Assembly (NCBI GenBank): GCA_027037615.1
Contig: JALVZN010000044.1
Coordinates: forward strand, 1 to 38,251
DNA length: 38,251 nt
Reading direction: 5' to 3'
Origin: a candidate division WOR-3 bacterium
GTDB lineage: Bacteria > Hydrothermota > Hydrothermia > B15-G9
Shown here: one piece after another, positions 9,173 through 34,400 of the stretch
Position numbering within the stretch: position 1 is the first letter of the stretch
How the letters are laid out: the number at the start of each line of letters is the position of its first letter
Notes under the pieces: generated by a model
The model's database searches: none
Told to the model about the DNA's origin: nothing
The model's input: only the letters and a program-made list of their open reading frames with translations
Program-made: the position numbers and the translations under genes

Positions 9173-9261
9173 GGCGGTAAAACTATAAGGAAGAAGTCAG
9201 CCGTGTTCCAGCCGCAGGCCTGACATTACGGCGGACTGCCCGTTACCTTAAAATTTTGAGT

Positions 9262-14702: not shown

Positions 14703-15905
14703 TCACGATTTAGATGTGGGCTCATCGCTTCGGGAAAGCTGGCTTTTCACGAACTGTATTTCGTCCTGAAGGGTCTTAATGCGGCCGTTAAGTCGCTCAA
14801 CTTCAATCAATTTCAGCATTTTCTGGATAGCCTGACCGCGGGGCACACCTAATTTGATGAGGTCGTCGCCTTTCAAGGCTGCCACAGCCAAGGACCGTCG
14901 CCTGAGATACAGCTCATAATTGCCACCCCTCAAAGCGGCAAGCGCCAGCAGGGTCTCCTCAGGCGCATTTCGCAGCACGGTGTGAATCTCCGAAAGCTCG
15001 GCGTTCATCGGGAGTTCAAGTGCCAGAATGAGGCTCATGATGGCGTTCTTCTCCTTTCTGGTCATCTGATCCCTCAAAACCCCGGTCTTATCAGCGCTGT
15101 TTGCGACAAAAAGGAGGTAAAACGGCAGCCAGTGTGACCTGTCCCTGCCCTCAAGAAGCACATCGAGCCTCTTTATCGCATTTTCAGGCGCCTGCATGCC
15201 GTAAATCAGGCGAAATCTGGAGAAATCGATGAACATCTCAACGCGCCTGCTCTCGACCGATGAGCGCACAAGCTCATTTTTGACCCGCACGAACGACACC
15301 AGCTCCATGTAATTTCGAGCGTTATCGAATTCGGACAGGGTCTCATCCGAATAGCGAAACCCGAACCTTTTGGCGTAGCGCACCGCCCTGAACCCGCGCG
15401 TCGGATCGTCCCTGAAGCTGCCAGCGTGGAGAACCCGTATGACCCCGTCCTTCAAATCCTCAACTCCCCCGAAGATGTCGATCAGGGTGCCAAATCCATC
15501 TTTTGAGAGATCGACAGCCATTGCGTTGATGGTGAAATCGCGCCTTCCAAGGTCTTCCTCTATCGAGTAGCATGGTCGGACAACGGGAAGGGCAGCGGGC
15601 GAAGGATACTCCTCTACCCTTGCGTGGGCGAAATCGATCGAAATGTCCCCGTATTTCACAGAGGCGGTCAGGAATTTCGAGAAAGTGACATTTTCCCTGC
15701 CAACTCCAAGCCTTTCGGCCACCGCAAACGCCATCGACCTAAGGTCACCGATGACGACGAAATCGTAGTCGAGCGTGTCCTTGCCGAGAAGCATGTCGCG
15801 CACCGGCCCGCCGACAAGGTAAAGACGGATTCCGAGCTCCGCAGCCACCGATGAGACAACCGGAATGAGCTCATATTTTCTGAGATCTTCGGGCGGGATT
15901 TTCAT
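14703..15905 (-). CDS. tRNA nucleotidyltransferase (CCA-adding) / poly(A) polymerase family protein
   Basis: LYLVGGPVRDMLLGKDTLDYDFVV matches the class II GGxVRD...DxD head motif, and RRDFTINAM is also present. No HD domain is evident. 400 aa. Confidence 0.85.
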   Translation of the reverse strand: MKIPPEDLRKYELIPVVSSVAAELGIRLYLVGGPVRDMLLGKDTLDYDFVVIGDLRSMAFAVAERLGVGRENVTFSKFLTASVKYGDISIDFAHARVEEYPSPAALPVVRPCYSIEEDLGRRDFTINAMAVDLSKDGFGTLIDIFGGVEDLKDGVIRVLHAGSFRDDPTRGFRAVRYAKRFGFRYSDETLSEFDNARNYMELVSFVRVKNELVRSSVESRRVEMFIDFSRFRLIYGMQAPENAIKRLDVLLEGRDRSHWLPFYLLFVANSADKTGVLRDQMTRKEKNAIMSLILALELPMNAELSEIHTVLRNAPEETLLALAALRGGNYELYLRRRSLAVAALKGDDLIKLGVPRGQAIQKMLKLIEVERLNGRIKTLQDEIQFVKSQLSRSDEPTSKS

Positions 15906-15911
15906 GTAACC

Positions 15912-16574
15912 TCATGAAGACACGGCTTTTAAGATCTCATCGACGAACATGGACTCCGGATATGCGCCCTCAAACTCGTAAGAATCGTTGATGACTATCT
16001 TCGGGACAGCATAAACCCCGTATTTTTCGGAAAGGTCGGGGAATTCGATGGCCTCTATCATGCAACTGGTTATCTTCTCGTTCTCTATGGCAAATCTGTG
16101 GGCGAGTGAGACCGCGCGCGGGCAATGCGGACAGGACGGAGTCACGAATATCTTTATCTCAGTCGGCGTCGTAATCGAGGCAAGCCTGTTTCGAGAATCA
16201 TCCGAGAGTCCGCTATCCCCTTTTGACACGAAAATTACATCCTCGACAAGTGACGAAAACTCGTATCCAGCAGGTATCCCGAAATATCTAATTCCGTGGT
16301 CGATCCTTTGAGAATCTTCAACCCTCAATATGGCTATCCCCGGGACCAGCCAGATGTTGTAACCGTCGGCGAGCTCAGCATCACGGTCGTAATCAACGAC
16401 TTCAAGGCTTATGAGCTCGGACAGCTCGGCCAATTCCGAGAGTATGAGTTCGGTATCGTTGCAATACTGGCACCCATCCGTGCGGGTGAACAGCATGAGC
16501 ACGACGGGCTTTTCGAGGTTCTGCCCAAAGTGCGCCCTGAGGTAATCGGCATCACTTTTGCTTAAAAGTGCCAT
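15912..16574 (-). CDS. Glutaredoxin-like protein disulfide oxidoreductase with two thioredoxin folds (PDO type)
   Basis: Two CxxC sites are present, one per half of the 220-aa protein (GCQYC and SCPHCPRA). The layout matches archaeal and thermophile PDOs. Confidence 0.75.
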   Translation of the reverse strand: MALLSKSDADYLRAHFGQNLEKPVVLMLFTRTDGCQYCNDTELILSELAELSELISLEVVDYDRDAELADGYNIWLVPGIAILRVEDSQRIDHGIRYFGIPAGYEFSSLVEDVIFVSKGDSGLSDDSRNRLASITTPTEIKIFVTPSCPHCPRAVSLAHRFAIENEKITSCMIEAIEFPDLSEKYGVYAVPKIVINDSYEFEGAYPESMFVDEILKAVSS

Positions 16575-16594
16575 TTCGTCCTCCTGAAGTTGGT

Positions 16595-17983
16595 TTAAAG
16601 TTCGACATCGTGTGATTTAACAGGCAGATACAGGTCAAAAGTCGTGCCTTCACCGACTTTCGACCTCACCTTGATCTTGCCACCAAGCGCCTCAAGTATC
16701 TGCTTGACATTGTGCAGGCCAAGCCCTGTGCCGCCCGGCTTGGTGGTGAAATACGGGTCAAATATGTGCTCCATGATGTCGTCGGGTATCCCCACGCCCG
16801 TATCCGAGAATTCAATCACAACATAGTCGTCCCTGCACTCTGTCACTATCTTCAACACGCCGCCATCGGGCATCGCCTCAATGGCGTTTCCGATCATGTA
16901 TTCACAGATTGCCTCTATCGATTTGCGGGGCAACATCATGGGAGGGACATTTTCGTCCAGATTCATCTCAACTTCCACATTCGACGCCACAAAATATCCT
17001 TGAAGGGAGCTGACTTTTTCTTTCAGGATCTCGTTAAGGTTGATCTCCTCAAACTCGCGGTTGGACTGCAAACGGATGCCCTCAACGGTCTCTTTCAGAA
17101 GGCGGTCGAGTTTTGAGACCTCGTCGATTATCGTCTGGACATACATGCGGCGCGGATCGCTTTCATCTATCTCATCGGCGAGCGCGCGGGCGATGCCGCC
17201 GATTACGACAATCGGGTTTTTAAACTCATGTGCGAGGTGGTTGATGATCTCACCGACCGCAGCCCGTCGCTCAAGCTTGATCAGCTGCTGCTGAATTTCG
17301 ATGAGCTTATCTCGTGTCTTCTGAAGCTCATCGACTTTTTCGAGGAGGTTCTTAAACAACCTTGCTCTGGAGATGGCGAGGGAGGCCTGGGATGCAAATG
17401 TATCGAGCGCAATCAGATCCTCCTGATGGATCGGCCTGTTTGTCACAAAGTTATCGGCGATGATGGCGCCGACGAGCTTACCCCTTGCGGCAAGTGGAAC
17501 GACGGCGATCTCCTCAACGCCGAGCGTCGGGAAAATACAAAGGGACGGGTTGTTGGTCACCCGTTCGATGAACGCATGGCCCGGGTTTTGCTCCATGCGG
17601 ACTATGCGCGGATTGGCATTTGGCCCGCTTGTCGGACAACGGAGCTGCTTTATGATATCTATGAATTTCTCCTTTTCGCGCTTGAAATTGTCAGGTGTGT
17701 AGCTACTTATGATTTTCTTCAGGGTTATCTTGTGGGTCTCAAGGTCGCTCCAGATCCTCTGAGCCTCTTCTCTGGTTCGCGGTCCCATGCCGAAATAGCC
17801 CCTGAGCTCGTGGCGTTCCGAGTCGTGCAGCAACACGAAGGCGCGGTTGAACCCGAACGACTCGCCAGATGTGACAGCTGCGAGCACTGCGTAAAGGATC
17901 TCGTTGAGGTCAACGGAGTTCTCCAGAACCTCAGAGACCGCATGAAATGCGTAAAGCACGGATTCCTTCACGACTCGCTCCAT
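16595..17983 (-). CDS. Cytoplasmic GAF-domain sensor histidine kinase
   Basis: H-box [10 protein letters not shown]. The HATPase G-boxes DTGVGIP and [19 protein letters not shown] are present. The N-terminal roughly 210 aa are GAF-like. No TM segment is evident. Confidence 0.88.
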
Positions 17984-19322: not shown

Positions 19323-19449
19323 AAACACCGCCTCCTTTGATTTTTGCCTATTTTAAACTATGTATAGGTCGATTTCTAACTTTCGAGAAGTGTAACATCC
19401 CCCGCTGCACATACACTATGCCAGAAAACGGTTTAGACCTTCGGGAAGC

Positions 19450-19478
19450 GGCCATCCCGCCGCAACTTTGATTAAAAA
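19450..19478 (-). promoter_or_regulatory. Candidate promoter for the usp-nudix-HK-PDO-cca unit (TAGAAA-N17-TAAAAT)
   Basis: On the minus strand, TAGAAA is at 19478-19473 and TAAAAT at 19455-19450, with a 17-nt spacer. The -35 is a weak 4/6 match. Confidence 0.3.
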
Positions 19479-19500
19479 TCGTCAGATAACATGTTATAAT
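19472..19500 (+). promoter_or_regulatory. Extended -10 promoter for the SEDS gene (TTAAAA-N17-TGtTATAAT)
   Basis: TGTTATAAT at 19492-19500 matches the TGnTATAAT consensus. A 4/6 -35 element lies at 19472-19477. It is 33 nt upstream of the ATG at 19533. Confidence 0.55.
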
Positions 19501-19532
19501 TTGCCACAACACATCGGGAGGCTGCTGAGCAC

Positions 19533-20702
19533 ATGAAAAAAGTCGAAATTCGGTTGATGCTTGCAATTCCAGTCCTTCTCACCATGATAGGCCTCCTTGA
19601 GCTCTACTCGATAAACACAGCCTTCTTTTACAGACAGTTGCTCAGCTTCCTTCTGGCAATCTTCGTCTTTGTGCTTTTTTACAGCATCCACAGTGACCTT
19701 ATCGAGTCCGCCGGCGTGCCCCTCTTTGTGCTGTCAGTTCTGCTCCTCATCGTCGTGCTAGGCATGCCGTCAAGCGGCCCAAAAAGGTGGATTCCGTTGG
19801 GCGGATTTAAGTTTCAACCCTCTGAGCTGGCCAAACTTGCAACGATCCTGATACTCGCCCACATATTTTCAAAAAGGGAGACGCGGGCAGCGTTCTGGAA
19901 AGCGGTCGTCCTGACGCTCATCCCATTCGGACTGACCCTGATCGAGCCCGATCTCGGAACTGCCGCCGTGTTCGCTTTCATAGGCTTCTCGATGGCGTAT
20001 CTTGCTGGATTTGAGACGGAACCGCTTTTCTTCGCCATCGTCATACTGCTTTCCTCTGTCCTATCATTCGTGCCGATGGGCTACATCCTTTTTCTGGCAA
20101 TAATTGCGCTTGGTGCCAGACTGTTGAGGTATTCGGCAAGCTTCATCTTTCTGCTCGTCTTTGCGAGCATCATCGTGGCGTTGATAACACCTGTGATCTG
20201 GGAGAAAGGGCTTCACGACTACCAGAGGAAAAGGATTACCGCATTCTTTCAGCCTGAGAAGTTCGAGAAGGACATCGGGTGGCAAACGGTTCAGGCTCAC
20301 ATAGCGCTGGGGTCAGGAGGGCTCACGGGCAAAGGGTTCAGGCATGGCACTCAGAAAGGGCTGTCATTCCTGCCCGCAGCGCATACGGACTTCATATTTT
20401 CGAGTATTGGCGAGGAATTCGGTTTCATCGTCTGTTCCCTGATCATATTCCTGTTTTTGTGGTGGATAGTTAAGGCCTTTATGATCTCATACCGATTTAA
20501 AAACCGGTTTGGTCAACTACTTGGCTACGGCGTGGCGACATCCATCTACTTCCACGCATTCGTCAACATCGGCGCCAACCTCGGCCTGCTGCCCGTAGTC
20601 GGGCTTCCTCTCCCGTTTATCACCTACGGAGGAAGTCACCTCATAGTTGAAGCCGCCATGCTGGGCGCATTTTTCAGGCAGATAAAGGAAAGCTCCGAGT
20701 AA
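19533..20702 (+). CDS. SEDS-family peptidoglycan glycosyltransferase (FtsW/RodA)
   Basis: About 10 TM segments. Motifs PSELAKLA, QAHIALGSGGLTGKGF and LPAAHTDFIFSSIGEEFGF are present. I cannot distinguish RodA from FtsW by eye. Confidence 0.88.
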   Translation: MKKVEIRLMLAIPVLLTMIGLLELYSINTAFFYRQLLSFLLAIFVFVLFYSIHSDLIESAGVPLFVLSVLLLIVVLGMPSSGPKRWIPLGGFKFQPSELAKLATILILAHIFSKRETRAAFWKAVVLTLIPFGLTLIEPDLGTAAVFAFIGFSMAYLAGFETEPLFFAIVILLSSVLSFVPMGYILFLAIIALGARLLRYSASFIFLLVFASIIVALITPVIWEKGLHDYQRKRITAFFQPEKFEKDIGWQTVQAHIALGSGGLTGKGFRHGTQKGLSFLPAAHTDFIFSSIGEEFGFIVCSLIIFLFLWWIVKAFMISYRFKNRFGQLLGYGVATSIYFHAFVNIGANLGLLPVVGLPLPFITYGGSHLIVEAAMLGAFFRQIKESSE

Positions 20703-20761
20703 AAGCTGTTCTCAAACCATTTACCATATAATTACCCGATAGGTTGAGAAAGGAGGCGATT

Positions 20762-23700
20762 ATGGTTGCTCAACTTTTGGCTTTTTATCTCATCGGTGTT
20801 CCTACCGTGGCATTGAATTCCACACCCGGCCCATCTCCGGAAGTAACCCTGTTCATCGAAGGAGAGGCTCAAAATATCGTGCATTTCAGGCTTTATGAGG
20901 TTCCCGACCCCGAATCATATCTGCTTGAAAGTTACAGACAGGGCTACATGCCGAAGAACGCAGTGGGCTTGAAAAACAATGGAGTTTCATCGACTTACGC
21001 TGCAATAAAAAGGGAAACACGGACATTCAGATACTGGCTGCGAGAGGTGATGTCATACCCTTACCGTTCTGCTACGGTCCAGGCGCTTGACCTGAAGAGC
21101 ATGGAGGTTAAAACTTACGACACGAACAAAAAGCTGCCGCCTCTCAACGGGTTCAGGCTCATCAAGGAATGGGATCTACCGACGCCGATCGTATCTTACA
21201 GCGACGACATAACAATTCCCGGCATGGACACGCTCCCCGAAAGGCTTTACCTGCTCGAAACATCCTATTCCGGGGTAACGACATACATCCCAGTGCTGAA
21301 AACGACACTGTTTTCGGAGTTCAAGGTCGGGCGTGGCCGCTATCTCCTTTTCCTGACTGACTCAGCATCAAATCCCATACCGGGAGCGAGGGTGGCGGTC
21401 ATAGAGAACCGCAAGCGAGCCATCAAAGGGGTTACCAATCCCGACGGCATAGCGGAGTTCAGCCGCGGCGACTCCATAAGGACGCTGATGGCCGTATTCG
21501 TCACAGAGGACAATCGAGTAAGTGTCTGTGGAGATTATTCTTATGGCTGGTTTACCTCGAACGAGGCCCGCATGAAGGCCTATGTCTATACCGACAGACC
21601 CATCTACAAACCCGGCCACACGGTTTACATCAACGGAATCCTGAGGAAACAGCGCGGATTTGGCTATCGCAACGCCCCGAACAGGTATGTGATTTTGAAG
21701 GTCAGCAGGGGATGGGGCGAAACCGAGCTCCTGAATGACACGCTCATGACGGACGAATTCGGAGCCTTCAACGACTCGCTTGTCCTGCCCGACAACGCAA
21801 AGCTCGGTTCATACTACATCGAAGTGGAATACGACGACGAAGAAATCGGATACCGCTCGTTTGAGGTTCAGGAATATGTCAAACCGGAATTCAAGGTCTC
21901 GATATCGACGGATGGCAAGAAGTTCGTCTCCGGTGACGAGATACACATCACAGTTTCTGCAGAATACATCTTCGGAGCGCCGTTGAAGGGCGGCGTTGCC
22001 GAACTTGTCGTTACAAAAATGCTTCCGTGGTGGTATTACTACAACGGCGCATCGGACTACCAGACGATTTTCAGGGGCAGCAACGAGTTGAACGACATGG
22101 GGAAAACCAGCTTCAAGCTCGAGGTGCCTCTGGATAGCATACCTTACAACTACCGCTTGGTGGCAACAGTCACAGGGCCAGACGGCCGCAAAATATCATC
22201 GTCAAAATGGGTTCAGGTCTATCCATCAAGTTATGTCCCGAATATCAGGCTCGACAAATTCATCTACACGGACGATGACACCGCCTTTACGGCCAGGGTC
22301 ACCGTGCACGACATAGACGGCAATCCGATCTCCACAAATGTGAAGCTCACGCTCTATCGCGGATGGCGCAGAAAGGAACAGCTCAAAGAGGCCCAATTCG
22401 CAACGGATGAGGACGGTGAGGCTCAGATCACGATGCCGCTCCCGCAATGGCCGGATGACTACTTCGTCGTCGTTAAGGTCACCGATCCGAGAGGCAGGCA
22501 GATGATAGCATCGGAATGGTTCTACCGCGCAAATTCACGATACAGGTGGTGGTCATGGAGCGGCGGACTTGAGCTGAAGGTGGACAGGGATACCGTGTCC
22601 AACGGCGATTCGATAACAGCCGTTGCCACAGCGCAAACTCCGAAGGGCAAGATGCTGATGACGCTTGTGGCAGGAGACACTATCATCGCCTACGATGTTG
22701 TCGATATCAAAAACCACATAGCCACCATCAAACTGCCTGTGCCGAAGGGCGTTAACGGTTGGATTCGACTTGCCGTCGAGATCGGCGGTCAAAAGCCTGA
22801 TATAGCGAGCAAAGGCATCTTGGTCGTTGATTCGTCCAAGATGCTGAATGTCAGGATAGAGACCGAAGGCAAGGAGTTTGAGCCCGGAAGCGAGATCACG
22901 CTCAAGGTAAAAATCACGGACTTTGAAGGGCGTCCTGCGAAAGCGGAATTTTCCATCGCAGTCGTTGACGAGGCCATCTACCAGCTCAAAAAGGATAATT
23001 CAGGGGACATCTTCGCCAACTTTTACATGCGGTATCAGGACGGCTGGCTCTGGAGCTTCAACTCGACATATTTCACATTCTACACGGACAGGAGCATCGA
23101 CCTGACGGAGCTGGCTAAGCGGAACGAAAGCTCTGCCGAGGCGATCGCCCAATTCAAGGAAGCGGCTCCATCACAGACGCCGGTCAGGGCAAAGTTCAAA
23201 GATCTCGCTTTCTGGAGAGCTAACGCCCGCACGAACGGGAGAGGCGAGGCGGTAATCAGGTTCCGACTGCCGGATAACATCACCCAGTGGCGCGTCACGG
23301 TAAAGGCTTTCACAAAGGACACACGGCTCGGTCAGGCGACACACAAGTTCTACGCTCGCAAGCGCGTGTTCGTGACCGTGGCTCCGCCGAGATACCTGAC
23401 AGTGGGCGACACTATCGAAATTCCCACAACCATCCACAACTTCATGTCGGCTCAGATGGAGTTCAAAGTCGATGTGAAGACAGACGGGCTAAAACTCCTC
23501 AGGGAAGGCCCGATAAGCGTGAGGGTTCCGTCTCAGGGCAGCAAGGTGATCCTGTGGACGGCAGTGGCAGAAACGCCCGGAAGTGCGTCCGTTCAGGCCA
23601 CAGCTTCCACATTCAGGGCATCCGACGCCGTGCGGATCTCGTTCCCGATAAAGCAGTATGGGCTTCAGATGTCCGTTGCGCGAAATGTTGAGGCCAGAGA

Positions 23701-25225
23701 CGGCGTCAGCTCAACCAGTTTCGTCCTGCCTGAAGTCAGCGAGATGAAAGACGCAAGTTGCAGGGTGACATTGGCTTCAGGTTACATCACCGTCGCAATG
23801 GCCGCGCTCCCCTACCTCAGAGGATACCCTTACGGCTGCGTTGAGCAGACTATGAGCCGATTTCTGCCCGACATAATCGTCAAAAGCATCGCTTCACGAT
23901 ACGGCATAAGGGTCGAGAACGAGGACGAGCTGGAGAAGATGATAAACATGGGCTTGAAACGGTTATACAGCTATCAGCACTACGACGGAGGCTGGGGCTG
24001 GTGGCAGTTCGACGACAGCGAGGATGAGATGACGGGCTATGTGATGTGGGGACTTGCGCTCGCCAGAATGAACGACATCGAGGTGAACCCATCGGTGATA
24101 GCTTCGGGGCTGTCCTACATCAAGGAGCGCGTGGGCTCCGATATCGATGACGGCGGCCTCGTGGATCTGCTGTTCGCATACTCCTATTACGACACACTGA
24201 CAGACGAAATGATCGACAATCTGCGCGATGTCTCGTTCAGCAACCTGACGCCTGTGCAGGAGGCCAAATTCGCAATCCTGACACATAAGCTCGGCATGGA
24301 CGACCTCAGCAAAGCCGCCCTGGAAGCGCTTGAGGAGGACAGATACCAGCTGTGGGAATACGAATGGATTCCTTACGACGAACTCTCGCTTGCATGGCGG
24401 ATAATGGCTTACAGTCAAACAGGATTCCGCCCGGTCGAACGGATGCAGGCCGTTGCGGACACGCTGATATCGATGCGGAAAGGCCCGAGATGGAGCTCAA
24501 CCCTCACAACCGCATACAGCGTCATGGCGCTCTCGGATTTGAGCCAGAAGTTGAACGAACGGGCCAAAAAATCCACCGTCACGCTGAAAGTTAACGGCCA
24601 TGAGATTTTCAAGGGCGAGATCGGAAATGGTGAGGTCAAATCGATAGATGTGCCGCTGGGCTACCTGAAGGGCGACACAAACACACTGACGCTCAAGAGC
24701 AAGCGGGTAAAGAGCTTCGCCTCACTCACGGTCTCGTGGTTCAGTGGGAAATACCCGATCAAAGCCCGTTCTGCGCCTGAGTTAAGCATCAAAAAGGAGC
24801 TGTATCAGCTCGATTATCGCAAAAAGGGCAGGGAGTGGGTGGCCTACGAAACGCCGATCCGCTCAGGCTCATCCATAAGGCCGATGTCGAGGATGAAGGT
24901 GAGGTTGACCATCATCGCAAACAAGGACATCGGGCGGATTATCGTGGAGGATCCCGTGCTGCCCGGAGCCGAGATCGATGAGAACGACTTGATGCGCAGA
25001 TACATCTACGATTATTGGGATTCGCCGATAGTTGGGATGGAACGAAAAAATGACCACATAGCGTTCGCCGTCCCCTACATCAATGAAGGCGACACCGTCA
25101 CGGTGGAGTATGTGGTGATGCTCCAAAACAAAGGCGTTTTCCATCTCATGCCGGCGGTGGCTTACGGGATGTATATGCCGCAATCGAGAGCAAATTCGAG
25201 AGAATACCTGATAAAAGTGCATTGA
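20762..25225 (+). CDS. Bacterial alpha-2-macroglobulin family protein with an intact thioester motif
   Basis: MG-domain signature YVYTDRPIYKPGHTVYINGILR, FSIAVVDEAIY, DLAFWRANARTNGRGEAVIRFRLPDNITQWRVTVKAF, thioester GYPYGCVEQTM (CVEQ at 23837-23848) and YQHYDGGWGWW. I place the start at ATG 20762, with AAGGAGG 6 nt upstream. The track's TTG at 20744 overlaps that RBS. 1,487 aa. Confidence 0.92.
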   Translation: MVAQLLAFYLIGVPTVALNSTPGPSPEVTLFIEGEAQNIVHFRLYEVPDPESYLLESYRQGYMPKNAVGLKNNGVSSTYAAIKRETRTFRYWLREVMSYPYRSATVQALDLKSMEVKTYDTNKKLPPLNGFRLIKEWDLPTPIVSYSDDITIPGMDTLPERLYLLETSYSGVTTYIPVLKTTLFSEFKVGRGRYLLFLTDSASNPIPGARVAVIENRKRAIKGVTNPDGIAEFSRGDSIRTLMAVFVTEDNRVSVCGDYSYGWFTSNEARMKAYVYTDRPIYKPGHTVYINGILRKQRGFGYRNAPNRYVILKVSRGWGETELLNDTLMTDEFGAFNDSLVLPDNAKLGSYYIEVEYDDEEIGYRSFEVQEYVKPEFKVSISTDGKKFVSGDEIHITVSAEYIFGAPLKGGVAELVVTKMLPWWYYYNGASDYQTIFRGSNELNDMGKTSFKLEVPLDSIPYNYRLVATVTGPDGRKISSSKWVQVYPSSYVPNIRLDKFIYTDDDTAFTARVTVHDIDGNPISTNVKLTLYRGWRRKEQLKEAQFATDEDGEAQITMPLPQWPDDYFVVVKVTDPRGRQMIASEWFYRANSRYRWWSWSGGLELKVDRDTVSNGDSITAVATAQTPKGKMLMTLVAGDTIIAYDVVDIKNHIATIKLPVPKGVNGWIRLAVEIGGQKPDIASKGILVVDSSKMLNVRIETEGKEFEPGSEITLKVKITDFEGRPAKAEFSIAVVDEAIYQLKKDNSGDIFANFYMRYQDGWLWSFNSTYFTFYTDRSIDLTELAKRNESSAEAIAQFKEAAPSQTPVRAKFKDLAFWRANARTNGRGEAVIRFRLPDNITQWRVTVKAFTKDTRLGQATHKFYARKRVFVTVAPPRYLTVGDTIEIPTTIHNFMSAQMEFKVDVKTDGLKLLREGPISVRVPSQGSKVILWTAVAETPGSASVQATASTFRASDAVRISFPIKQYGLQMSVARNVEARDGVSSTSFVLPEVSEMKDASCRVTLASGYITVAMAALPYLRGYPYGCVEQTMSRFLPDIIVKSIASRYGIRVENEDELEKMINMGLKRLYSYQHYDGGWGWWQFDDSEDEMTGYVMWGLALARMNDIEVNPSVIASGLSYIKERVGSDIDDGGLVDLLFAYSYYDTLTDEMIDNLRDVSFSNLTPVQEAKFAILTHKLGMDDLSKAALEALEEDRYQLWEYEWIPYDELSLAWRIMAYSQTGFRPVERMQAVADTLISMRKGPRWSSTLTTAYSVMALSDLSQKLNERAKKSTVTLKVNGHEIFKGEIGNGEVKSIDVPLGYLKGDTNTLTLKSKRVKSFASLTVSWFSGKYPIKARSAPELSIKKELYQLDYRKKGREWVAYETPIRSGSSIRPMSRMKVRLTIIANKDIGRIIVEDPVLPGAEIDENDLMRRYIYDYWDSPIVGMERKNDHIAFAVPYINEGDTVTVEYVVMLQNKGVFHLMPAVAYGMYMPQSRANSREYLIKVH

Positions 25226-26808
25226 TGACCGCATTCTGGATAATCGTTTTGCTCGCGCAGGGTGTCCGTGTCAGGGTGCTGGCGTCACGAGATGTAGGAG
25301 AGCTGGTCGTGTCGCACGCAATGATGGTGGACGGCGCGGACACCCTGAAATTCCGTTCCCTCAAATTCAGAGCAAGAAGCGGTTATGTCGTCTGGGGGAA
25401 CAGGATATCGAAGAAAGTAACTATCTTGCCTTTGCGCAGGGCATTATCGATAGATTTCGATGGTGAGACCCGTCGCTACACGGGCAGACTTGAGCTCACA
25501 GCCGAAGGCGATAAGCTGGTGCCGATAAACATCGTAAATCGAGGGGACTACCTTGCCTCAGTGGTCGGCTCCGAGATGACATCGAACGCCCCCATCGAGG
25601 CGCTGAAGGCTCAGGCCGTGCTCGCAAGGACTTTCGTGCTCAAATTTCGCGAAAAGAAGCACGCGGGATTTAATTTCTGCGACCTCACCCACTGCATGCA
25701 TTACAACGGCAGCGATGCGATAACGCCTGCCACTTCCAGAGCCGTCAGGGAAACCGAGGGCATCGTCCTCGTCGCTTCAGATGGCACACCTGTCGAGCCA
25801 TACTTCTCCGCATCAAACGGGGGTAAGATCGACCTCCCGTCAAAGGTGTGGGGCACAGACGATCCCGATTACCTCAGGTCGAAAGATGACCCTTTCTCGG
25901 CAACTGCCACCGACCGAAACCGCGTCTGGAGGACGGAAATTCCGGTTTCAAAGATAGAAATGGCTTTCGGAATTACAGGGCTGATCGACATTGAAGTCGA
26001 TACGATGTCGTCGCCCATGATGGTGGAGCTCATCGGAAACACAACGATGAGGATTCGAGCCGCAGATTTCAAAATCAGGCTGAACCGTGCCATCGGATGG
26101 AACAAAATCAAATCCGTTAGGTTCTCAGCTCGCAGGCACGGCTCGAAATATGTCTTTGAAGGCAAAGGGCTCGGGCACGGCATAGGGCTGTCTCAGGCTG
26201 GAGCCATCGAGATGGCGCTCAGAGGCTACACTTTCGAGGAAATACTGCATTTCTACTTCCCCGTCGCGTGGCTCCGAGAAGGGAACTCATCGTTTCTCTA
26301 TCGCGGAAGGATAACCGAAAAGGTGCACTCCGACCTCAAACAGGCTCTCGCAGATGTCGAAAACTCCCTCTCCCTCAGGCATTCATCCCCGATTTACATC
26401 GTCGAATTCAAATCCGTCGGGGAATTCACGGCCGCCACAGGTCAACCGTGGTGGAAAGCGGCCGTTACGGTGGGAGATACGATTTACATCCAGCCTTTTG
26501 AAATTTTGCGCAAACGGGGTATCTACTCCGAGACGATGAGGCGAGAGCTCTACCATGTGATTCTCAACCAGCACGACATCGAACTGCCATTGTGGTTGAG
26601 AGAAGGGGTTGCCACACTGCTGTTCGGGAGCCGCCAATCGGTGGGCGGTCAGATTCCGCCGCCTCAGAGAGTGGAATTGATGCTCAGGTCAAATGACAAA
26701 GAGGAATTCAGGCGCGGCTGGGTCTATTCCGCCGCACTTGCAGAGAAATATTTGTCCAACAGGGACATAAAATCTATTTTGAGTTCAAAGCAAACTGGAG
26801 GTATGTAA
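25225..26808 (+). CDS. SpoIID/LytB-domain protein with a C-terminal degenerate MA-metallopeptidase-like domain
   Basis: SpoIID signature DYLASVVGSEM...EALKAQAVLARTFVL...CDLTHCMHYNG...YFSASNGGK. The C-terminal part contains RELYH (26542-26556) and LPLWLREGVATLLFG. Its ATG overlaps the A2M TGA in TGATG. Confidence 0.85.
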   Translation: MTAFWIIVLLAQGVRVRVLASRDVGELVVSHAMMVDGADTLKFRSLKFRARSGYVVWGNRISKKVTILPLRRALSIDFDGETRRYTGRLELTAEGDKLVPINIVNRGDYLASVVGSEMTSNAPIEALKAQAVLARTFVLKFREKKHAGFNFCDLTHCMHYNGSDAITPATSRAVRETEGIVLVASDGTPVEPYFSASNGGKIDLPSKVWGTDDPDYLRSKDDPFSATATDRNRVWRTEIPVSKIEMAFGITGLIDIEVDTMSSPMMVELIGNTTMRIRAADFKIRLNRAIGWNKIKSVRFSARRHGSKYVFEGKGLGHGIGLSQAGAIEMALRGYTFEEILHFYFPVAWLREGNSSFLYRGRITEKVHSDLKQALADVENSLSLRHSSPIYIVEFKSVGEFTAATGQPWWKAAVTVGDTIYIQPFEILRKRGIYSETMRRELYHVILNQHDIELPLWLREGVATLLFGSRQSVGGQIPPPQRVELMLRSNDKEEFRRGWVYSAALAEKYLSNRDIKSILSSKQTGGM

Positions 26809-26810
26809 CC

Positions 26811-28172
26811 ATGAAAAAGGTGATAACAGTCACAATCATCGTGGCCGCACTCACAGCGGCTTTATACAGTTATTTGCAGCCTCAGGAGTTGAAAAGGAAG
26901 GACATATCGAGCGATTTTGAGCTGCTCCCGGCCGAAAACATCAAGAGCGTCGTCGTCCTGCCGTCATTCGACAGGACGCTTGAGCTGGTCGGGACGAAGG
27001 AGTGGTTCAAAGAGGCCCAATCGAACGGGCTTATGGACGATTTTTTCGATTATCTCGCATTCAGGCTGAACATCGGCGGCCTGCCGTCAAAGGCGCTTAA
27101 GCTTTTCCACGGCAAACTGTTCTGGGATCTCATCGGCGATGGCGCACTGGTCGCAACATACGACAACGGCGAGAAGATTTACATCACGCACCCGAAAGAG
27201 CATGTCCAGATGGCATGGCGCAGCATTCTGAAAGAGGGGCAGGAATTCCGCCATTCCGGCCTGCTTTACTCGAAGCTGGGCCAGTCCTACATCAGTTTTG
27301 TCGGAAACCTGTTTGTGGCGACCACATCTGAGCCGAAGATGTGGGCCGTGCTCGAACGAATGACCAAAAAGATGCCGTCGATGGCAGAACAGATGAGCCC
27401 GATGAGCGGGGTTTACGCTTACGGCATGGTGGAAGGGGACGGTGTGCTTCTGCGCGGAAAAATCGAGTTCAAAGTCAATGAAAACGGCCTGACAGCGGAT
27501 ATGCGCGACATCGACGGGGTTATCGGTGCGCCTCTGAGGACTGCCAAACCGTTCGGAAAACTTCTTCTGCCCGACGGGACAACGGCGGTGATTGGGTTCA
27601 AGAAGATCGATTTTTCCGAGAGCGAGGATTTTCTCGCAAACAACTTCCCGAATTACACGAATTCGTTGAGCGAAAACGGGATCAAACCCATCTTTCCGCT
27701 TCTGAAAGGCAAGCTAAAGCTCATCGTGGCGGGGTTTACCGAGGACTACTACGCCGTTCCGGAATTCGCATTGAGCATGCAGCTGAGCAGAAAGGGGCGA
27801 AAGGCAATTCGCGATGTCATGGGCGGCTACATCTCGGACGATCAGTCGCTTCTCAGCTGGGGCGTGGAATCGAACAACCTGATTTTGTGGAACGAGCAGA
27901 CGCTCAAGAACATGCTCAAAAGCTCGCGTGGCAAAACTGTCTCAAAACGCAACCTGATAGCCGTTATAGACATGGACGCAGTCTCGCGCAACATCTTCGA
28001 CTACATGATGCATGTGTCGAGATATTCCGAGTTTGTAAGCGCAAACGCACTCAGGAGCAAGGTCGCCAATGTCGTCCGCAAGATGATCAAAGGCCGCGCA
28101 GTCGTGCTCATGAGCCATCCTGACAAAAACGATGTGCGGATAGAGTTTCTGACAAGCCAATCGGCGCGCTAA
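26811..28172 (+). CDS. Membrane-anchored protein of unknown function
   Basis: It has a single N-terminal TM or signal anchor (VITVTIIVAALTAALYSYL). The remaining roughly 430 aa have no motif I recognise. The ATG is 2 nt after the SpoIID-domain stop. Confidence 0.6.
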   Translation: MKKVITVTIIVAALTAALYSYLQPQELKRKDISSDFELLPAENIKSVVVLPSFDRTLELVGTKEWFKEAQSNGLMDDFFDYLAFRLNIGGLPSKALKLFHGKLFWDLIGDGALVATYDNGEKIYITHPKEHVQMAWRSILKEGQEFRHSGLLYSKLGQSYISFVGNLFVATTSEPKMWAVLERMTKKMPSMAEQMSPMSGVYAYGMVEGDGVLLRGKIEFKVNENGLTADMRDIDGVIGAPLRTAKPFGKLLLPDGTTAVIGFKKIDFSESEDFLANNFPNYTNSLSENGIKPIFPLLKGKLKLIVAGFTEDYYAVPEFALSMQLSRKGRKAIRDVMGGYISDDQSLLSWGVESNNLILWNEQTLKNMLKSSRGKTVSKRNLIAVIDMDAVSRNIFDYMMHVSRYSEFVSANALRSKVANVVRKMIKGRAVVLMSHPDKNDVRIEFLTSQSAR

Positions 28173-28318: not shown

Positions 28319-28347
28319 TTGCCACGGTATTAAATTTTGGTTATAAT
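28319..28347 (+). promoter_or_regulatory. Near-consensus sigma70 promoter for the giant gene (TTGCCA-N17-TATAAT)
   Basis: TTGCCA at 28319-28324, an exact 17-nt spacer and TATAAT at 28342-28347. The predicted 5'-UTR is about 85 nt. Confidence 0.65.
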
Positions 28348-28438
28348 GGCGCTTAGAAACCAACCCACCTGAAGAGGGACAGGATAAAGTCATACCCGCC
28401 ATCCTCTCTCTTTGAAGGTGAAAGGAGGGAAGGGAGTT

Positions 28439-31400
28439 ATGAACAAGTCCAGATTTTTGGTCGCCTTCATGGCGATCGTCGTCGCTTTCCCTGCTTTCAT
28501 ACACGCCGAGCTGACATCCGTCGAATACAAAAGGGATGTTTACTACAACTCCGATCCGCAGAGCGGCGCGCCGCTCGATGTTGACTACCATACGCCGGGC
28601 ATCACCTCCATCTCCATGCTGCAACAGGACAGGTTGCACCTCTATTTTCAGGCAGGGACAACGCCCTACTATTTGAAGGGCGGAATAAGGGTTAAGTTCA
28701 TCTGGGACACTGATTCAGCTGGTCCCGGGAACAGGTTTTCTGTAAAAGTCGTTGCGGAGACCGATTCAGCGTTTCAGGGGAACCCATACTTTGGAGGTTC
28801 TCACGAGATCTATTCCAATTACGGGGTTCAGGTAGGCGTTACAGATGAGGCAAGGGTTCTGGAACTGCATTATGGCGTTCTGACATGGGGAGATTGGATG
28901 GAAACACTTGTGGGGCTGGGCTTTGACTTATGCATAAACATGCGTGGCGATGGGATACTGCCAATGGAAAGCGAATCGCTCACCGCCGGGGATGAGGTCA
29001 CCCTCGTTTCAATCGGTGCCGATATGTTAGCAGGGGAGAAAGCTTTGAAGGATAGGCATGGGAATCCCATCAAGGACGACGCGGCATCATCTGTCCTGGG
29101 GTTATTGAACCTTGTGAGTCTCGGCATGAGCAACTACTACAAACTCCAAGACGGCCGCATATACTTAGAGATTGAACCCGTCTGGCCGTTTTACTACGAT
29201 CCGGCTTATGGCAACAACAGTCAGCATGTCTGGATGCACAGGGGCGACACAGTCGTGTTGCATCTCGCCGTCGATCCCCTTGCGACAAACAACGATACCG
29301 GCTACTTCAGGATACTCTCCAACGGATATGTTGAGGAGGACATCTACTACAGGCAGGCGATACATGTGGGTTTCCTGTGGTGGGATGAGGATGTTTACAC
29401 GGAGCCTTGGTTCCCGTTGAGGAACGGGACGGTCGCCCTGATGTTAGATGACGATTTCCCGCTCATACCCGTCCCGTTAACAGGGGAAAGCCATTCACAC
29501 GCAGACCTTTACATAGACACTGAATATCTATCCGTGTGGAACACAAGGTATCTGGGCGGATATGTCTCACTGACGCCAACTCCTCAGGTAGATGGCTGGA
29601 CAGGCGTCGGAATTAAAGTGAAAAACAAGGGCAACATCACATCGACAGGTTACACAATAAAGTTCGTGTTTCCCGATAGCGTCAAAACTGAGCACAGGGA
29701 CGGCAACATACCGCCGGGCGGACACGATGATGTCTCAAAAGTGAGTCCTCAATGGACGCAGACGGGCGTGTCCCCGATCTCGATTATCATCATACCTGAC
29801 CCGACCAATCACGACCCCAATCCGCACAACGACACGCTGAACTTCAATGTCTTTGTCCGTAAGCACACGATTCCGGTGCTGGTGGCCATCGTGGATGAAG
29901 CAACTGGCGATACCATAACGCCTTCCGATTCGGTCTTTGGCCGCGTATGGGCGACGAACAACCAGAACTATTTTGAGCGCGGCGTCCCCGATACAACCTA
30001 CAACGGCTGGGACAGGTGGCTGTTGATGGTGCCAGAGGGGGAAGCGGTCACCATCACCGCTTTTCCAGATTCCAATCACCAAAATATTTACACATCAAGC
30101 AAATATGTCGATGTGGATACCTTATCGTCAGAACCTCTATGGGTTTACATCAGGCTATGGGGATGGGGATCCGTTGAGGGCACCGTCACGGACGAGAGCG
30201 GGGCGCCGATTGAGTCCACTCTGGTGTCGGTGGGGCCTTTTTACACATGTTACACCGACCAGAACGGCCATTATCTGATTGAACACCTGCCATCAAACCA
30301 CCTTTTGACAAACTCACCCTATTATGTCAGTTTCTACGCTCCGGGATACCGCATCGACAGCATCCCGTTCCATATCAACAACTCAGAGACAGCACATATC
30401 GACCACCAGATGGCGGACATAGACACGATCCCGCCATACGGAGAGATCAGCTGCTCGCCTGTTGTTCCAAAGACGCTCACGATAAACCTAACCGCAATGG
30501 ATACATTCACCCAATTTGGCGATACCCTGCCTCCGACGAAGGTCATGATCAAGGACAACAACTCATCGTGGCATGAATACGATTACGGGACGGGTTTTGA
30601 CAAATCCATAACATGGACGGTTCACACAAGCACTTCCCATACGGAGGTTGACACGATTTTTGCAAAGTTTGAGGACAACGCTGGAAACATATCGGACAGC
30701 ATCATGCAGGTCGTAACAGTGGCTCAAGACCCGCCTGAGGGCACCTTCACGATAAACCACGGCAACAGCAGCACATCAAATACGGATGTCATGATCACAG
30801 ATGTGACGATCACCTCAAGCGCCGTAGGTGTGCGGGACATAACGATCACCGAAGATGGCGGCGATAGCGTGACTTACAACTACTCGGAGGGGGCGGAATA
30901 TCCGTTCTCCATCACTGCAACCGCCGGCTCTCACACGGTCTGGGTCACTTTCAGGGATTCGTTTGGCCTGACATCACAGCCTGTGCCAGGCGCCATAGAG
31001 CTCGAATATTCAGGGAGGGTGTCGATAAACAACGGTGCACAATACACCAGATCAACCTCAGTTGACCTATCGATCGAGGCGAGCTCCTTTTTGGTCTCAA
31101 ATGTGAGTGGTGACAACATGTTCGGCGGCCACCCTCTGGCTCAATCGTTCGTGCCGCATGCCGACAGGATTTACGGGATCAGCGTTTACTTAATGGGCGC
31201 AGATTCAGGCCTCAAAATCGGGATTTACAGGGATTCCGTGGCCGGCAATACCCATTTGCCCGGCCGCATGCTCGTGCTGGATACCCTGAACTATGACCCT
31301 CAGGCTGGATGGGTAACAATTCCCTACCCCTCGCCCATTTTAGTCGATCCAGACAGGAGTTACATGATAGTCCTATTTCAGACTACGCTCGACGGCGTAT

Positions 31401-34400
31401 CGAATGACCTCTATGTGGAAGCGGGGCCATCGAACAACTATTCCGAAGGGGATCTCTACTTCTATCCGTCATACAGAAAACGGCCGACGGATGACTGGTA
31501 TTTCTCGGGCTATGACATGGTTTTCAGGGTTCTGGGACGGGCTGACGGGATGGAGATCTCGAACTACGAGGATTTTCACAATTCAACGGGTTTGATCTCT
31601 TTCAGTCCCTCTTATTCGGGCTGGGAACTGCTTCCCGGTGACGGATTGAAAAGGGTCTATGTGAGGATAACGACGGGCAGCAATGTCTCGACGGTCCACG
31701 ACGCCATAATACTCGATCGAGAACCGCCGACCGATGTCTCGGTCTCGATAATGAACCACCTCCCATACCTTGAGACCACGGAGTGCACGCTCAACATCTA
31801 TGCCGTTGATACACTTTCGGATGTGGAAGCTTACAGCGTAAACGATGGCGAATGGCAGGATGCATACCGCCTTCTGCCGATGATCACGGTGCACAATGTC
31901 CAATCGGGTGCTCCCGGGCCAAGGACGATGAGTTTCAGGTTCAAGGACAGGGCAGGCAACATAAGCGATCCCACTTCCGTGACCATCGATTATGACCCGG
32001 ACGGCCCTCAAGCGTCGGTAAGGCTTGGAAACAACGGATTTTCGCCATCGGAAACTGTCGGAGTCCATATCTCTCTCGCAAAATTCAACGGAAAGTCGAT
32101 AACGGTTGACAGCATGAGGTTTGCGTCGGGGCACCGTATGGAATGGGGCGAATGGATGCCTTTTAAGGCCGATACATCTTACATCTTCGACAAAGGCGGG
32201 AATGTTGGGCTATGGGTCGCATTGAAAGACAATTACCGCAAAACATCGACATTCATCGCAAACTGCGTGATCGACACGACCCCACCCGGTGAGGTTTATG
32301 ATGTGCGAGATGAAGGTCAATCGACCAGAAACCACAGCTCGCTCGCCTTCTGGTGGCAATGCAGAGGGGACTACGAATCCGGGCTCTCGCAATTCCAGAT
32401 AGTCGTATCGACCGATCCGAGTTGCCTCAGCGACATCGTCACGGTTGTCTCTGTGCCTCCGAATGACAGATCCGCTCGCATAGATGTTCCAGGTATGCGC
32501 GGCGACTCAACATATTACGCAAAAATCGTGGCGGTGAACAGGGCGGGACTCTGGAGCCAGAGCGACCCAACCGATGGGATAACCGTCATAAACGGCATAG
32601 TGCAATTCGATTTGATCTCGCCTTCCGACTCAGCCCTTCTGGATAACAGCCAGCCTGTTCAGCTTGTCTGGCACAGCACATCGGACAGCATTTCCGTCCT
32701 GACAGGATACGAAGTCTTTATCGACAATGCATCTTATGGGCTTATCGGGGACACAACGCTTTCGATAGACACGCTTGACGACGGCTGGCACAGCTGGTAT
32801 GTGGTTGCGCACGATAGCCTTGGGGATACCAAAACCTCATCGTCAACATACAGCTTTTATCTCGGTGCGGCGCCGCAAACACCGCTGGCCATCTTCCCGT
32901 CGGACACATTCCTGAACAGCGACACGGTGAACTTCATCTGGAGCTCCGCATCGAAAGCGGCCTTAAGCAACCCATCAGCAATCGGTAAACCGAGATGGGA
33001 AGGCGCGGACGATGGGCTCAAGGGCGCGGACATCTTCACAATCCAGATAGCGACTGACACATCGTTTTCGTCGATCGTGGACTCCGTAACCACCTCGGAC
33101 ACAACCCTATCGCTTGTTATCGGCGAGGGCAGGTGGTTCTGGAGGGTAAAAGCGTCCAATCCGCTCGGCACATCCGACTGGAGCACTACGGCAAGGTTCG
33201 GCGTTGACACGACGGCCCCGACACCGTTTGCGGGCATCTCTCCATCGGCATCCGACACAATTCACAGCGATACGGTGCAGTTCCTGTGGCATAGTTCGTT
33301 CGACAACTTCGGGCTGATCGGATACAGGCTCACCTGCTTCTCTCAGGACACGGCGATAACGGTTTACACAGGCGACACCGCCTCCACCATAGCGCTCAGG
33401 TCAGGTGATTACAGCTGGTATGTCGAGGCGATAGACAGCGCTGACAACATAACCCATTCCGATACCGTAGCTTTCACCGTTGAGGTCATCACGCTTCCGA
33501 CGCCCGTGCTCGTTTCGCCTCAGAACGACACCATCGTCGCCCACACGGATGGGATCGAGTTCGTCTGGCGAACCAGCGGAATTAAAAACGGGTTGGCGGA
33601 CATCGACGGCGCGAAAACCCCGTCATACGGGTTCGTGTTCCAGCTGTCTTCGGATTCGCTATTTCAAAACCCGGTGGTCTGTGACACGCTGACGGACACA
33701 ACCATAACGCTCGACATCTCTGAAGGCCGTTTCTACTGGCGGGTAAGGGCGGCTGATTCGATCGGCCACCTCAGCTACTGGACTTCGGCATGGGAACTGC
33801 TGGCAGATACAACCCCGCCGAATGCGCCCGTTCTGATCTCGCCATCGGACGGTGACACGCTGCATTCCGACACGATCCAGTTTCTTTGGCATGCCGCAGC
33901 CGACAATTTCGGAATTATGTCATACCAGATAAGTTGTTGGTCAGCGGATACATCGCTCTCATTGCAGACTCAGGACACATCGCTTGCCGTCGCCCTGCCA
34001 AACGGCCACTACTCATGGGCGGTCGATGCGGTCGATAGTGCTGGACATTCGACGGCTTCCGATTCCGTTTCATTCACGGTTCGCGTGTTCAACCTACCGA
34101 CACCTGTGCTGATCTGGCCACATAACGATTCCATCTACAATACATTTGAGGTGCCATTCGTGTGGAGCCCGGGGGACGGCAAAAAAGGCTCATCCGATGC
34201 AGGAAAACCGTCGAATTACTACATCCTTGAGGTGTCGAGTGATTCGTCTTTCGACAACATAACCATTTCCGACACATTGGCAGACACATCTGAGACGCTA
34301 TCGCTCTGGTATGGATACGCTTACTGGAGGGTTAGGAGATACGACGACGAGGGCGGACTTAGCGCATGGACAGCCACATGGACGACCGGAGTTGATACCT

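Follow-up and report, generated by a model that had tools for sequence, protein, structure and literature searches.

A conserved alpha-2-macroglobulin, SpoIID-domain and membrane protein gene unit from a candidate division WOR-3 bacterium as a probable thioester-bearing relative of the mag/yfa operon

A contig of 38,251 nucleotides from a candidate division WOR-3 bacterium (JALVZN010000044.1, assembly GCA_027037615.1; the whole stretch is called the window below) carries, at positions 20762-28172, adjacent genes for a thioester-bearing alpha-2-macroglobulin (A2M), a SpoIID-domain protein and a membrane protein of 453 amino acids (aa). We read these genes, with a probability of roughly 0.6, as a conserved three-gene core that is a derived form of a widespread, thioester-bearing counterpart of the mag/yfa operon, with a SEDS gene recruited upstream in this lineage only. 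An original prediction, made from the window's sequence, had joined all four genes in a possibly undescribed module for envelope defence and wall remodelling. The four open reading frames (ORFs), the CVEQ motif, the 1-nt and 2-nt junctions, the 59-nt gap and the orphan TATAAT on which it was built were re-read directly in the sequence and are all as it claimed. The features concerned are the following:

19533-20702, plus strand: SEDS gene, 389 aa, RodA-like peptidoglycan glycosyltransferase
20762-25225, plus strand: A2M gene, 1487 aa from the ATG, thioester alpha-2-macroglobulin
23837-23848, plus strand: CVEQ thioester motif of the A2M (C1026-V-E-Q), context GYPYGCVEQTMS
25225-26808, plus strand: SpoIID-domain gene, 527 aa, SpoIID/LytB domain and a predicted gluzincin-fold domain
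25573-25575, plus strand: Glu117 codon of the SpoIID domain, in a 'VVGSEM' motif
26542-26556, plus strand: R440-E-L-Y-H444 of the SpoIID-domain protein, a degenerate HExxH motif
26811-28172, plus strand: 453-aa gene, single N-terminal transmembrane helix and alpha/beta extracytoplasmic domain

The order A2M, SpoIID gene with its C-terminal clan MA-like domain (SpoIID::MA) and 453-aa gene was kept in four related loci (L003, L004, L005 and L092 in our numbering), at 46-63% identity and with different flanks. In a more distant locus, L091, the one locus returned by a metagenome scan with a five-sequence alignment, an A2M gene, a SpoIID::MA-like gene and a 453-aa homologue (26% identical) were found and no SEDS gene; collinearity of the three genes therefore holds down to 26-29% identity. 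In the WOR-3 loci L008 and L096/97, the A2M, a transpeptidase (TP), the SpoIID domain, the MA domain and the 453-aa homologue are all encoded as separate genes. The nearest SpoIID homologues outside the window clade were TP::SpoIID fusions of 770-920 aa from Acidobacteriota and short WOR-3 proteins, and all three of those whose surroundings were looked up lay within 3 kb of an A2M gene.

A wider survey of A2M genes was performed with an alignment of the A2M group on one genome per GTDB species. The loci of the best 80 of 594 relatives, which did not include the window clade, were fetched and annotated by phmmer with window proteins, WOR-3 proteins and E. coli YfaA/T/Q/P, YfhM and PbpC as seeds. 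Fifty-two thioester-A2M loci extended 4 kb or more beyond the A2M on its downstream side; among them, a SpoIID gene was detected in 33, at a median distance of 867 bp, and a transpeptidase and an MA-like domain in 30 each. DUF1175/MagC was encoded directly upstream of the A2M in 35 of 66 loci. Further, DUF2135/MagF was found in L066 and L071 (E 1e-25 to 1e-28), both of which show the order DUF1175, A2M, DUF2135, TP, SpoIID. Neither DUF2138 nor the 453-aa family occurred in any of the 80 surveyed loci, and a PbpC-like neighbour was observed in two of them, both from Anaerolineae. At least seven lineages carry such clusters: Acidobacteriota (the majority), Myxococcota (L066), Leptospirales (L071), Sericytochromatia (L051), Armatimonadota (L020), WOR-3 and the window clade. 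The adjacency of A2M and SpoIID, which would have lost its meaning if absent from related genomes, is therefore not due to chance, as it is kept in relatives with other flanks and recurs throughout the survey.

Within the TP::SpoIID::MA fusions, the SxxK, SxN and KTG motifs of the transpeptidase were invariant, so that the enzyme of the relatives looks active from its motifs. Taken over the loci surveyed, the full form of the cluster would comprise DUF1175/MagC, a thioester A2M, sometimes DUF2135/MagF, a transpeptidase, SpoIID, an MA peptidase with an HExxH motif and, in some lineages, a DUF3352-like protein. Such clusters are widespread in non-proteobacterial diderms and essentially undescribed; full-text searches of the literature returned no link of A2M to SpoIID, DUF1175, DUF2135, DUF2138 or DUF3352 beyond the work on Mag.

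The connection with the mag/yfa system runs through YfaQ, which is MagE. The type-II operon of E. coli has the order yfaA (DUF2138), yfaT (DUF1175), yfaS (A2M), yfaQ (DUF2300) and yfaP (DUF2135), and residues 312-374 of YfaQ match the Pfam SpoIID family at 27 bits (cutoff 23). In line with this, the window SpoIID protein matched YfaQ by BLASTP (E 4e-5), and YfaQ matched the SpoIID protein of L096 by phmmer (E 2e-8), although the window protein has neither a DUF2300 match nor a transpeptidase-like half. A 2025 preprint describes YfaQ as a periplasmic protein with an N-terminal transpeptidase-like and a C-terminal SpoIID-like part and with envelope phenotypes (10.1101/2025.02.11.637708), and makes no mention of macroglobulin. 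In the Mag literature, the role of MagE has been a puzzle, the protein being reported as cytoplasmic or as a chaperone. From these matches, MagE/YfaQ looks like a degenerate transpeptidase::SpoIID protein, of which the surveyed clusters appear to hold the catalytically intact counterpart, and the window SpoIID gene can be regarded as its positional equivalent and remote homologue. Since YfaQ itself scores as SpoIID, the best reading of the module is that of a non-proteobacterial relative of the mag/yfa operon that bears a thioester. The original prediction had held that neither known set of A2M partners is present in the window; this was too strong, as the SpoIID gene occupies the magE/yfaQ position, YfaQ passes the Pfam SpoIID cutoff and related clusters carry MagC and MagF. 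With both MagF and the TP and SpoIID genes next to their A2M, L066 and L071 form a bridge between the two architectures.

The family assignment of the A2M was confirmed by six Pfam domains (MG2, MG3, A2M_BRD, A2M, TED_complement and bMG10), all over their cutoffs, and its thioester is intact; no NCBIfam model matched either the A2M or the 453-aa protein. C1026, E1028 and Q1029 were invariant in the alignment of the A2M group, and G-CxEQ was present in 83 of the 89 surveyed A2Ms. The N-terminus (MVAQLLAFYLIGVPTVALNSTPG) is hydrophobic and has no Cys, hence no lipobox, where E. coli YfhM has LALAGC; a comparison of N-termini gave the same result for the other A2Ms of the window group, which in this respect are like MagD and unlike YfhM. 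These features suggest an exported, non-lipoprotein thioester A2M. Its closest relatives outside the clade were those of L091 (E 4e-230), WOR-3 L008 (499 bits) and Acidobacteriota (about 460 bits).

The neighbouring SpoIID domain (approximately residues 96-347) was predicted from its sequence at the outset and is recovered by both models, over their thresholds: PF08486 at E 2e-22 (79.9 bits, cutoff 23) and TIGR02669 at 182 bits (cutoff 83.3). It also matches the PDB entries 5I1T, 4RWR and 5TXU at E 5e-18. Glu117 aligns to the Glu of the 'AGEM' motif in Clostridioides difficile SpoIID (5I1T), which we take to be the catalytic residue of SpoIID, and the C..HC and GHGIGLSQAGA motifs are retained. 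The domain is thus likely to be a glycan-cleaving, lytic-transglycosylase-like enzyme. With sporulation SpoIID of B. subtilis and C. difficile, which acts in SpoIID-SpoIIM-SpoIIP engulfment, it shares a homologous domain in which the (A/S)EM Glu, C..HC and GHG(V/I)G(L/M)SQxGA are conserved. However, the host is no sporulating Firmicute, there is no SpoIIP or SpoIIM, and the window domain is fused to a peptidase fold and lies inside an A2M operon.

The C-terminal domain of the same protein (approximately residues 353-527) matches a separate 203-aa gene located 3' of the WOR-3 SpoIID gene (E 3e-19), and also the C-terminal domain of the acidobacterial TP::SpoIID::MA fusions. A structural model with a mean predicted local distance difference test score (pLDDT) of 91.6 was matched by Foldseek to collagenase T (4AR8; E 5e-4, template modelling score (TM) 0.56), to collagenase H and to LTA4H, and on this model the domain has a gluzincin fold, i.e., thermolysin-like and of clan MA. 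No Pfam family matched the window domain, and its WOR-3 homologue reached only E 0.024. In the window protein, R440-E-L-Y-H444 has an Arg in place of the first zinc-ligand His, while the downstream E460-G461 is retained. In the alignment, RExxH was found in the window clade and L091, and HExxH...EG in WOR-3, Acidobacteriota, Myxococcota and the other groups surveyed. Because the first His is replaced by Arg, the domain in the window clade is probably not a zinc peptidase. The suspected Peptidase_MA relationship therefore stands with respect to the fold, which the model supports, and not with respect to a Pfam match or an intact zinc motif.

The third protein of the core belongs to no Pfam or NCBIfam family, and its own family is very rare, with four clusters (at 90%) among 5.8 billion and six representatives (at 50%) among 1.84 billion. 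Its members are those of the window and its 88-99% identical relatives, of L003, L004, L005 and L092 (44-54% identity, other flanks), of L091 (26%) and of the WOR-3 loci L008, L096 and L097; each member with a readable context closes an A2M-SpoIID-MA cluster on its 3' side. One of them, P0249, matches DUF3352 (PF11832) faintly, at E 9.6e-6, and the window protein itself does not, which points to a remote relationship of the family to DUF3352. The structural model (pLDDT 82) had a single PDB match, to the Treponema pallidum membrane-interacting lipoprotein TP0453 (TM 0.23/0.38); a function by likeness to TP0453 was rejected, as the global fit is too poor. By analogy with MagB, the transmembrane anchor of the non-lipoprotein MagD in the Mag literature, the 453-aa protein could anchor the A2M to the membrane or stabilise it.

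Some 30 Acidobacteriota loci in addition to L011 (14569-15390) and L029 (14904-15758) encode two families of polytopic membrane proteins (about 265 and about 285 aa) directly 3' of the A2M and ahead of TP/SpoIID. They were considered as DUF2135-like proteins, and this was rejected, as they are polytopic and have no Pfam match. In the acidobacterial version, these proteins might serve as the membrane component.

Several likenesses tie the window unit to mag/yfa. Both MagD and the window A2M are non-lipoproteins with a signal peptide; a SpoIID-like gene lies directly 3' of the A2M gene, namely yfaQ/magE there and the window SpoIID gene here; and each operon encodes a single-pass membrane protein (MagB there, the 453-aa protein here). 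There is also a peptidoglycan link, as MagC, according to a citation in PMC10318531, binds peptidoglycan. The window-related clusters, moreover, carry true homologues of DUF1175/MagC and DUF2135/MagF. On the other hand, the window SpoIID domain is canonical by its TIGR02669 score rather than a degenerate DUF2300 and is followed by the extra gluzincin-fold domain, and the 453-aa protein has no detectable similarity to MagB.

With the YfhM-PbpC pair of E. coli, and Sa-A2M of Salmonella, the window shares CxEQ in the thioester domain (TED), the same MG/BRD/TED/MG10 set of domains, and an A2M tied to peptidoglycan enzymes, an arrangement read as protease trapping with wall repair. It differs in the missing lipobox, in the lack of a pbpC/GT51 gene in the window, in low similarity (PDB E 1e-27 over part of the protein) and in an A2M that is about 170 residues shorter. 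The absence of pbpC, part of the original prediction, was borne out: with the E. coli PbpC domains as phmmer queries, neither a GT51 nor a transpeptidase gene was detected in the 38-kb window. Thus, we do not count the unit as a member of either A2M system: not of type I, because the lipobox is missing and the window has no pbpC, and not of type II, because the thioester is present and DUF1175, DUF2135 and DUF2138 are absent.

The closest resemblance is to the DUF1175-A2M-TP-SpoIID-MA clusters of Acidobacteriota, WOR-3, Myxococcota, Leptospirales and others, with which the window shares the A2M subgroup, the SpoIID subfamily and the MA-like family. The window A2M has its best outside matches there, and the WOR-3 versions also close with a 453-aa homologue. 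Relative to these clusters, DUF1175 and the transpeptidase have been lost from the window clade, its SpoIID and MA-like domains have become fused and HExxH has changed to RExxH, with SEDS upstream in one subclade.

Several observations weigh against a relationship to mag/yfa, or at least against a close one. The window A2M has CxEQ, while MagD and YfaS have no thioester, an absence that defines type II, and no gene for DUF1175, DUF2135, DUF2138 or a transpeptidase was found in the window. The A2M is equally distant from YfaS and YfhM, at about 145 bits each, and its signal peptide, read from the ATG, has no charged n-region. A TP::SpoIID::MA profile aligned to YfaQ over the SpoIID core helix only (E 2e-4, probability 44%). 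Likewise, a profile of the 453-aa family showed no similarity to E. coli YfaA (DUF2138/MagB; probability 0.4%), and the MagB-like role of the 453-aa protein therefore rests on topology and gene position only. With regard to the survey, most loci are from Acidobacteriota and are phylogenetically clustered, and the scan, through its patterns (PYGC[TV]EQT and one further motif), is biased towards A2Ms of this group. Given the weak similarity, the missing DUF and transpeptidase genes and the thioester, we describe the relation to mag as one of cluster architecture and remote homology, not of membership.

As an alternative, the four genes could form a self-contained, previously unknown module in which SEDS takes over from PbpC the function of repair polymerase, and the SpoIID and 453-aa proteins are new partners unrelated to known A2M sets, which is close to what had been predicted. 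The SEDS protein is well supported as such (PF01098, E 6e-80, 269 bits); it passes the RodA model NF037961 (205 bits, cutoff 150), scores 309 bits with TIGR02210, under the cutoff of 337, and retains the HTDFIF motif. It is encoded in the same direction as the A2M with a gap of 59 nt, and L003, at 63-70% identity and with other upstream genes, has a like arrangement with a gap of 48 nt; across the window, L003 and L093 the gap is 48-59 nt and the upstream flanks differ. The window has no GT51 or transpeptidase gene. However, the linkage is confined to the window subclade, i.e., the window, its 88%-identical relatives and L003, and SEDS is absent upstream of the A2M in L091, next to it in WOR-3 L008, and from every one of the 80 loci surveyed. 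Among the four genes, conservation is highest for SEDS (70%, against 63%, 53% and 54% for the others), as expected for a housekeeping RodA, which it perhaps is here, and there is no cognate class B penicillin-binding protein (PBP) beside it. Further, the SpoIID partner has a magE/yfaQ counterpart, and related clusters carry the MagC and MagF homologues. We therefore consider the self-contained module unlikely. SEDS is a lineage-specific neighbour outside the widely conserved core and not its defining partner. The central role that the original prediction gave it in place of PbpC is not supported, and in most relatives the part in wall synthesis falls to a transpeptidase domain rather than to a glycosyltransferase.

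The junctions between the genes are tight. The A2M TGA (25223-25225) and the SpoIID ATG (25225-25227) have one base (A) in common, a 1-nt overlap, and the SpoIID stop TAA (26806-26808) is separated by 2 nt from the ATG of the 453-aa gene at 26811, which is preceded by GGAGG. The gap between SEDS and A2M (20703-20761) contains AAGGAGG and a TATAAT (20727-20732) without a -35 element; the A2M ATG has the AAGGAGG 6-7 nt 5', and an alternative TTG start is located at 20744. In a consensus scan, no promoter-like or terminator-like site was found on the plus strand of the three junctions, which is compatible with a single four-gene transcript and not proof of it; SEDS is probably co-transcribed with the A2M. 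Two sites were found outside the unit:

19472-19500, plus strand: promoter-like site 5' of SEDS, TTAAAA-17-TATAAT, TG-extended, 10/12 matches, a consensus match only
28319-28347, plus strand: promoter-like site ahead of the next gene (a giant T9SS-sorted protein), TTGCCA-17-TATAAT, 11/12 matches

The former is a candidate start of the four-gene transcript, and the latter, which lies in a 240-nt intergenic region 3' of the 453-aa gene, likely marks the 3' boundary of the unit. Both are consensus matches only and are to be read with the limits of the scan, in which site counts in the region were not above shuffled expectation and whose consensus does not model promoters of the Fibrobacterota-Chlorobiota-Bacteroidota (FCB) type.

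A second alternative, to which we give rather less weight than to the self-contained module, is that defence against foreign proteases is not the main role of the A2M, which would instead control or scaffold the cluster's own wall enzymes (the MA-type peptidase, the transpeptidase and SpoIID), for instance by caging an endogenous peptidase or being processed by it, and would thereby limit wall remodelling to a certain place or time. The linkage of an HExxH MA-type domain to the A2M in 30 of 52 loci speaks for it, as does the processing of Pseudomonas aeruginosa MagD from 165 to 100 kDa, which depends on Mag partners including MagE. Deletion of yfaQ, moreover, leads to envelope and cell-width phenotypes without any external protease (10.1101/2025.02.11.637708). 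In the window clade, however, the zinc site is degenerate (RExxH) and the A2M thioester is kept, and a cognate protease-inhibitor pair is therefore not the whole story there; in addition, the characterised bacterial A2Ms trap exogenous proteases. Finally, an accidental neighbourhood of envelope genes that have nothing to do with each other in a single metagenome-assembled genome (MAG), with which the ordinary housekeeping surroundings, the uniform composition and the missing mark of a special island would agree, is refuted by the neighbourhood data, as the order is kept at low identity with changing flanks and 63% of the surveyed A2M loci, in at least seven lineages, have SpoIID within a few kb, for which a rough estimate by chance is <1%.

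The flanks of the unit consist of housekeeping genes (SecDF, NAD kinase, PFK, ATCase, CCA-adding enzyme, and a GAF histidine kinase with NUDIX and Usp genes), with a uniform composition, and an origin as an island or mobile element was therefore judged unlikely. The Usp gene and SEDS diverge from an intergenic region of 204 nt (19329-19532), with a GC-rich hairpin at 19448-19463 just 5' of the promoter-like site; an Rfam search of the window returned no match, so no known riboswitch or leader precedes SEDS. On the 3' side, positions 28412-36778 (plus strand; probable ATG at 28440) encode a giant protein of 2788 aa with Big_13, fn3 and CarboxypepD_reg repeats and a C-terminal Por_Secre_tail for sorting by the type IX secretion system (T9SS). 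This gene has its own promoter-like site and stays beside the module in the 88%-identical relatives (L093-L095). Its T9SS sorting domain, together with WOR-3 as the nearest relative of the module, suggests a host of the FCB group. Two further ORFs on the plus strand, 9256-11382 (708 aa) and 11952-12515 (187 aa), had no Pfam match at E <= 0.001, and the 708-aa ORF sits in the locally GC-richest part of the window (0.57).

The survey also returned A2M loci of other composition. A different set of neighbours was found in DUF1175-less A2M loci of Armatimonadia, Desulfuromonadaceae and Sericytochromatia (L046, 14025-14798; L047; L051), among which a VanW and G5 protein is encoded 3' of the A2M in six loci and an AMMECR1 protein 5' in five. 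In the acidobacterial L006 (4491-12724), the A2M is truncated (927 aa), XisH/XisI genes and several small ORFs separate it from TP::SpoIID::MA, and a BrnT-toxin gene lies 5' of the A2M; this cluster looks decayed or interrupted. L096 (5287-7133), and likewise L097, encodes a Lactamase_B_3 protein and a putative lipoprotein of 167 aa between the A2M and the transpeptidase, as well as a DUF3160 protein 3' of the 453-aa homologue. In L066, the myxococcal cluster includes a gene for a Ser/Thr protein kinase (15228-16751), flanked by DUF2135 on one side and the transpeptidase on the other, and an alphaproteobacterial MAG (L080, 9569-21627) carries two full-length A2M genes on the same strand, approximately 2.5 kb apart.

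On our preferred reading, that of a derived relative of the mag/yfa operon, the A2M would be exported into the periplasm, where the 453-aa protein would anchor it to the inner membrane, as MagB tethers MagD. A protease that breaches the outer membrane would cut the bait region and be trapped covalently via the thioester, and the SpoIID-like enzyme would cleave or clear glycan strands at the damaged site, in the window lineage without an active peptidase and without a transpeptidase partner. New glycan could then be laid down by the co-expressed SEDS polymerase. This mechanism draws on gene linkage, domain identities and motif states, from which we infer localisation, complex formation, activities and co-transcription. 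More tentatively, the thioester A2Ms of many non-proteobacterial diderms could act as part of an ancient and so far unrecognised periplasmic 'breach-response' machine that unites the A2M with a transpeptidase, a lytic transglycosylase of the SpoIID type, an MA peptidase and a membrane anchor. The mag operon would be a degenerate form of this machine and A2M-PbpC a parallel solution. The window lineage would have rewired it by inactivating the peptidase, losing the transpeptidase and recruiting SEDS and the DUF3352-like anchor. If this were true, the capture of a protease by the A2M and the local excision and resynthesis of peptidoglycan would be physically coupled.

That bacterial A2Ms work with peptidoglycan enzymes and in a multiprotein operon is a known principle, and envelope defence with wall remodelling, as proposed at the outset, holds as a general idea for an A2M coupled to peptidoglycan enzymes in a conserved unit. 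With respect to the literature searched, what is new is the combination of a thioester with Mag-type partners and an intact transpeptidase, SpoIID and MA peptidase, together with the reduced version in the window, which adds a rare membrane protein family, a candidate anchor, found only in such clusters. Bacterial A2Ms are currently sorted into those with a thioester and PbpC and those with no thioester and a Mag operon. The loci described here blur this division, as they combine a thioester with MagC, sometimes MagF, an intact-looking transpeptidase and SpoIID, of which MagE/YfaQ appears to be a relic, and a metallopeptidase. MagE thereby gains a concrete, testable identity as a peptidoglycan enzyme, and the idea of a mechanistic link between protease trapping and wall repair is strengthened, with tractable model organisms indicated among Acidobacteriota, Myxococcota and relatives of Leptospira.

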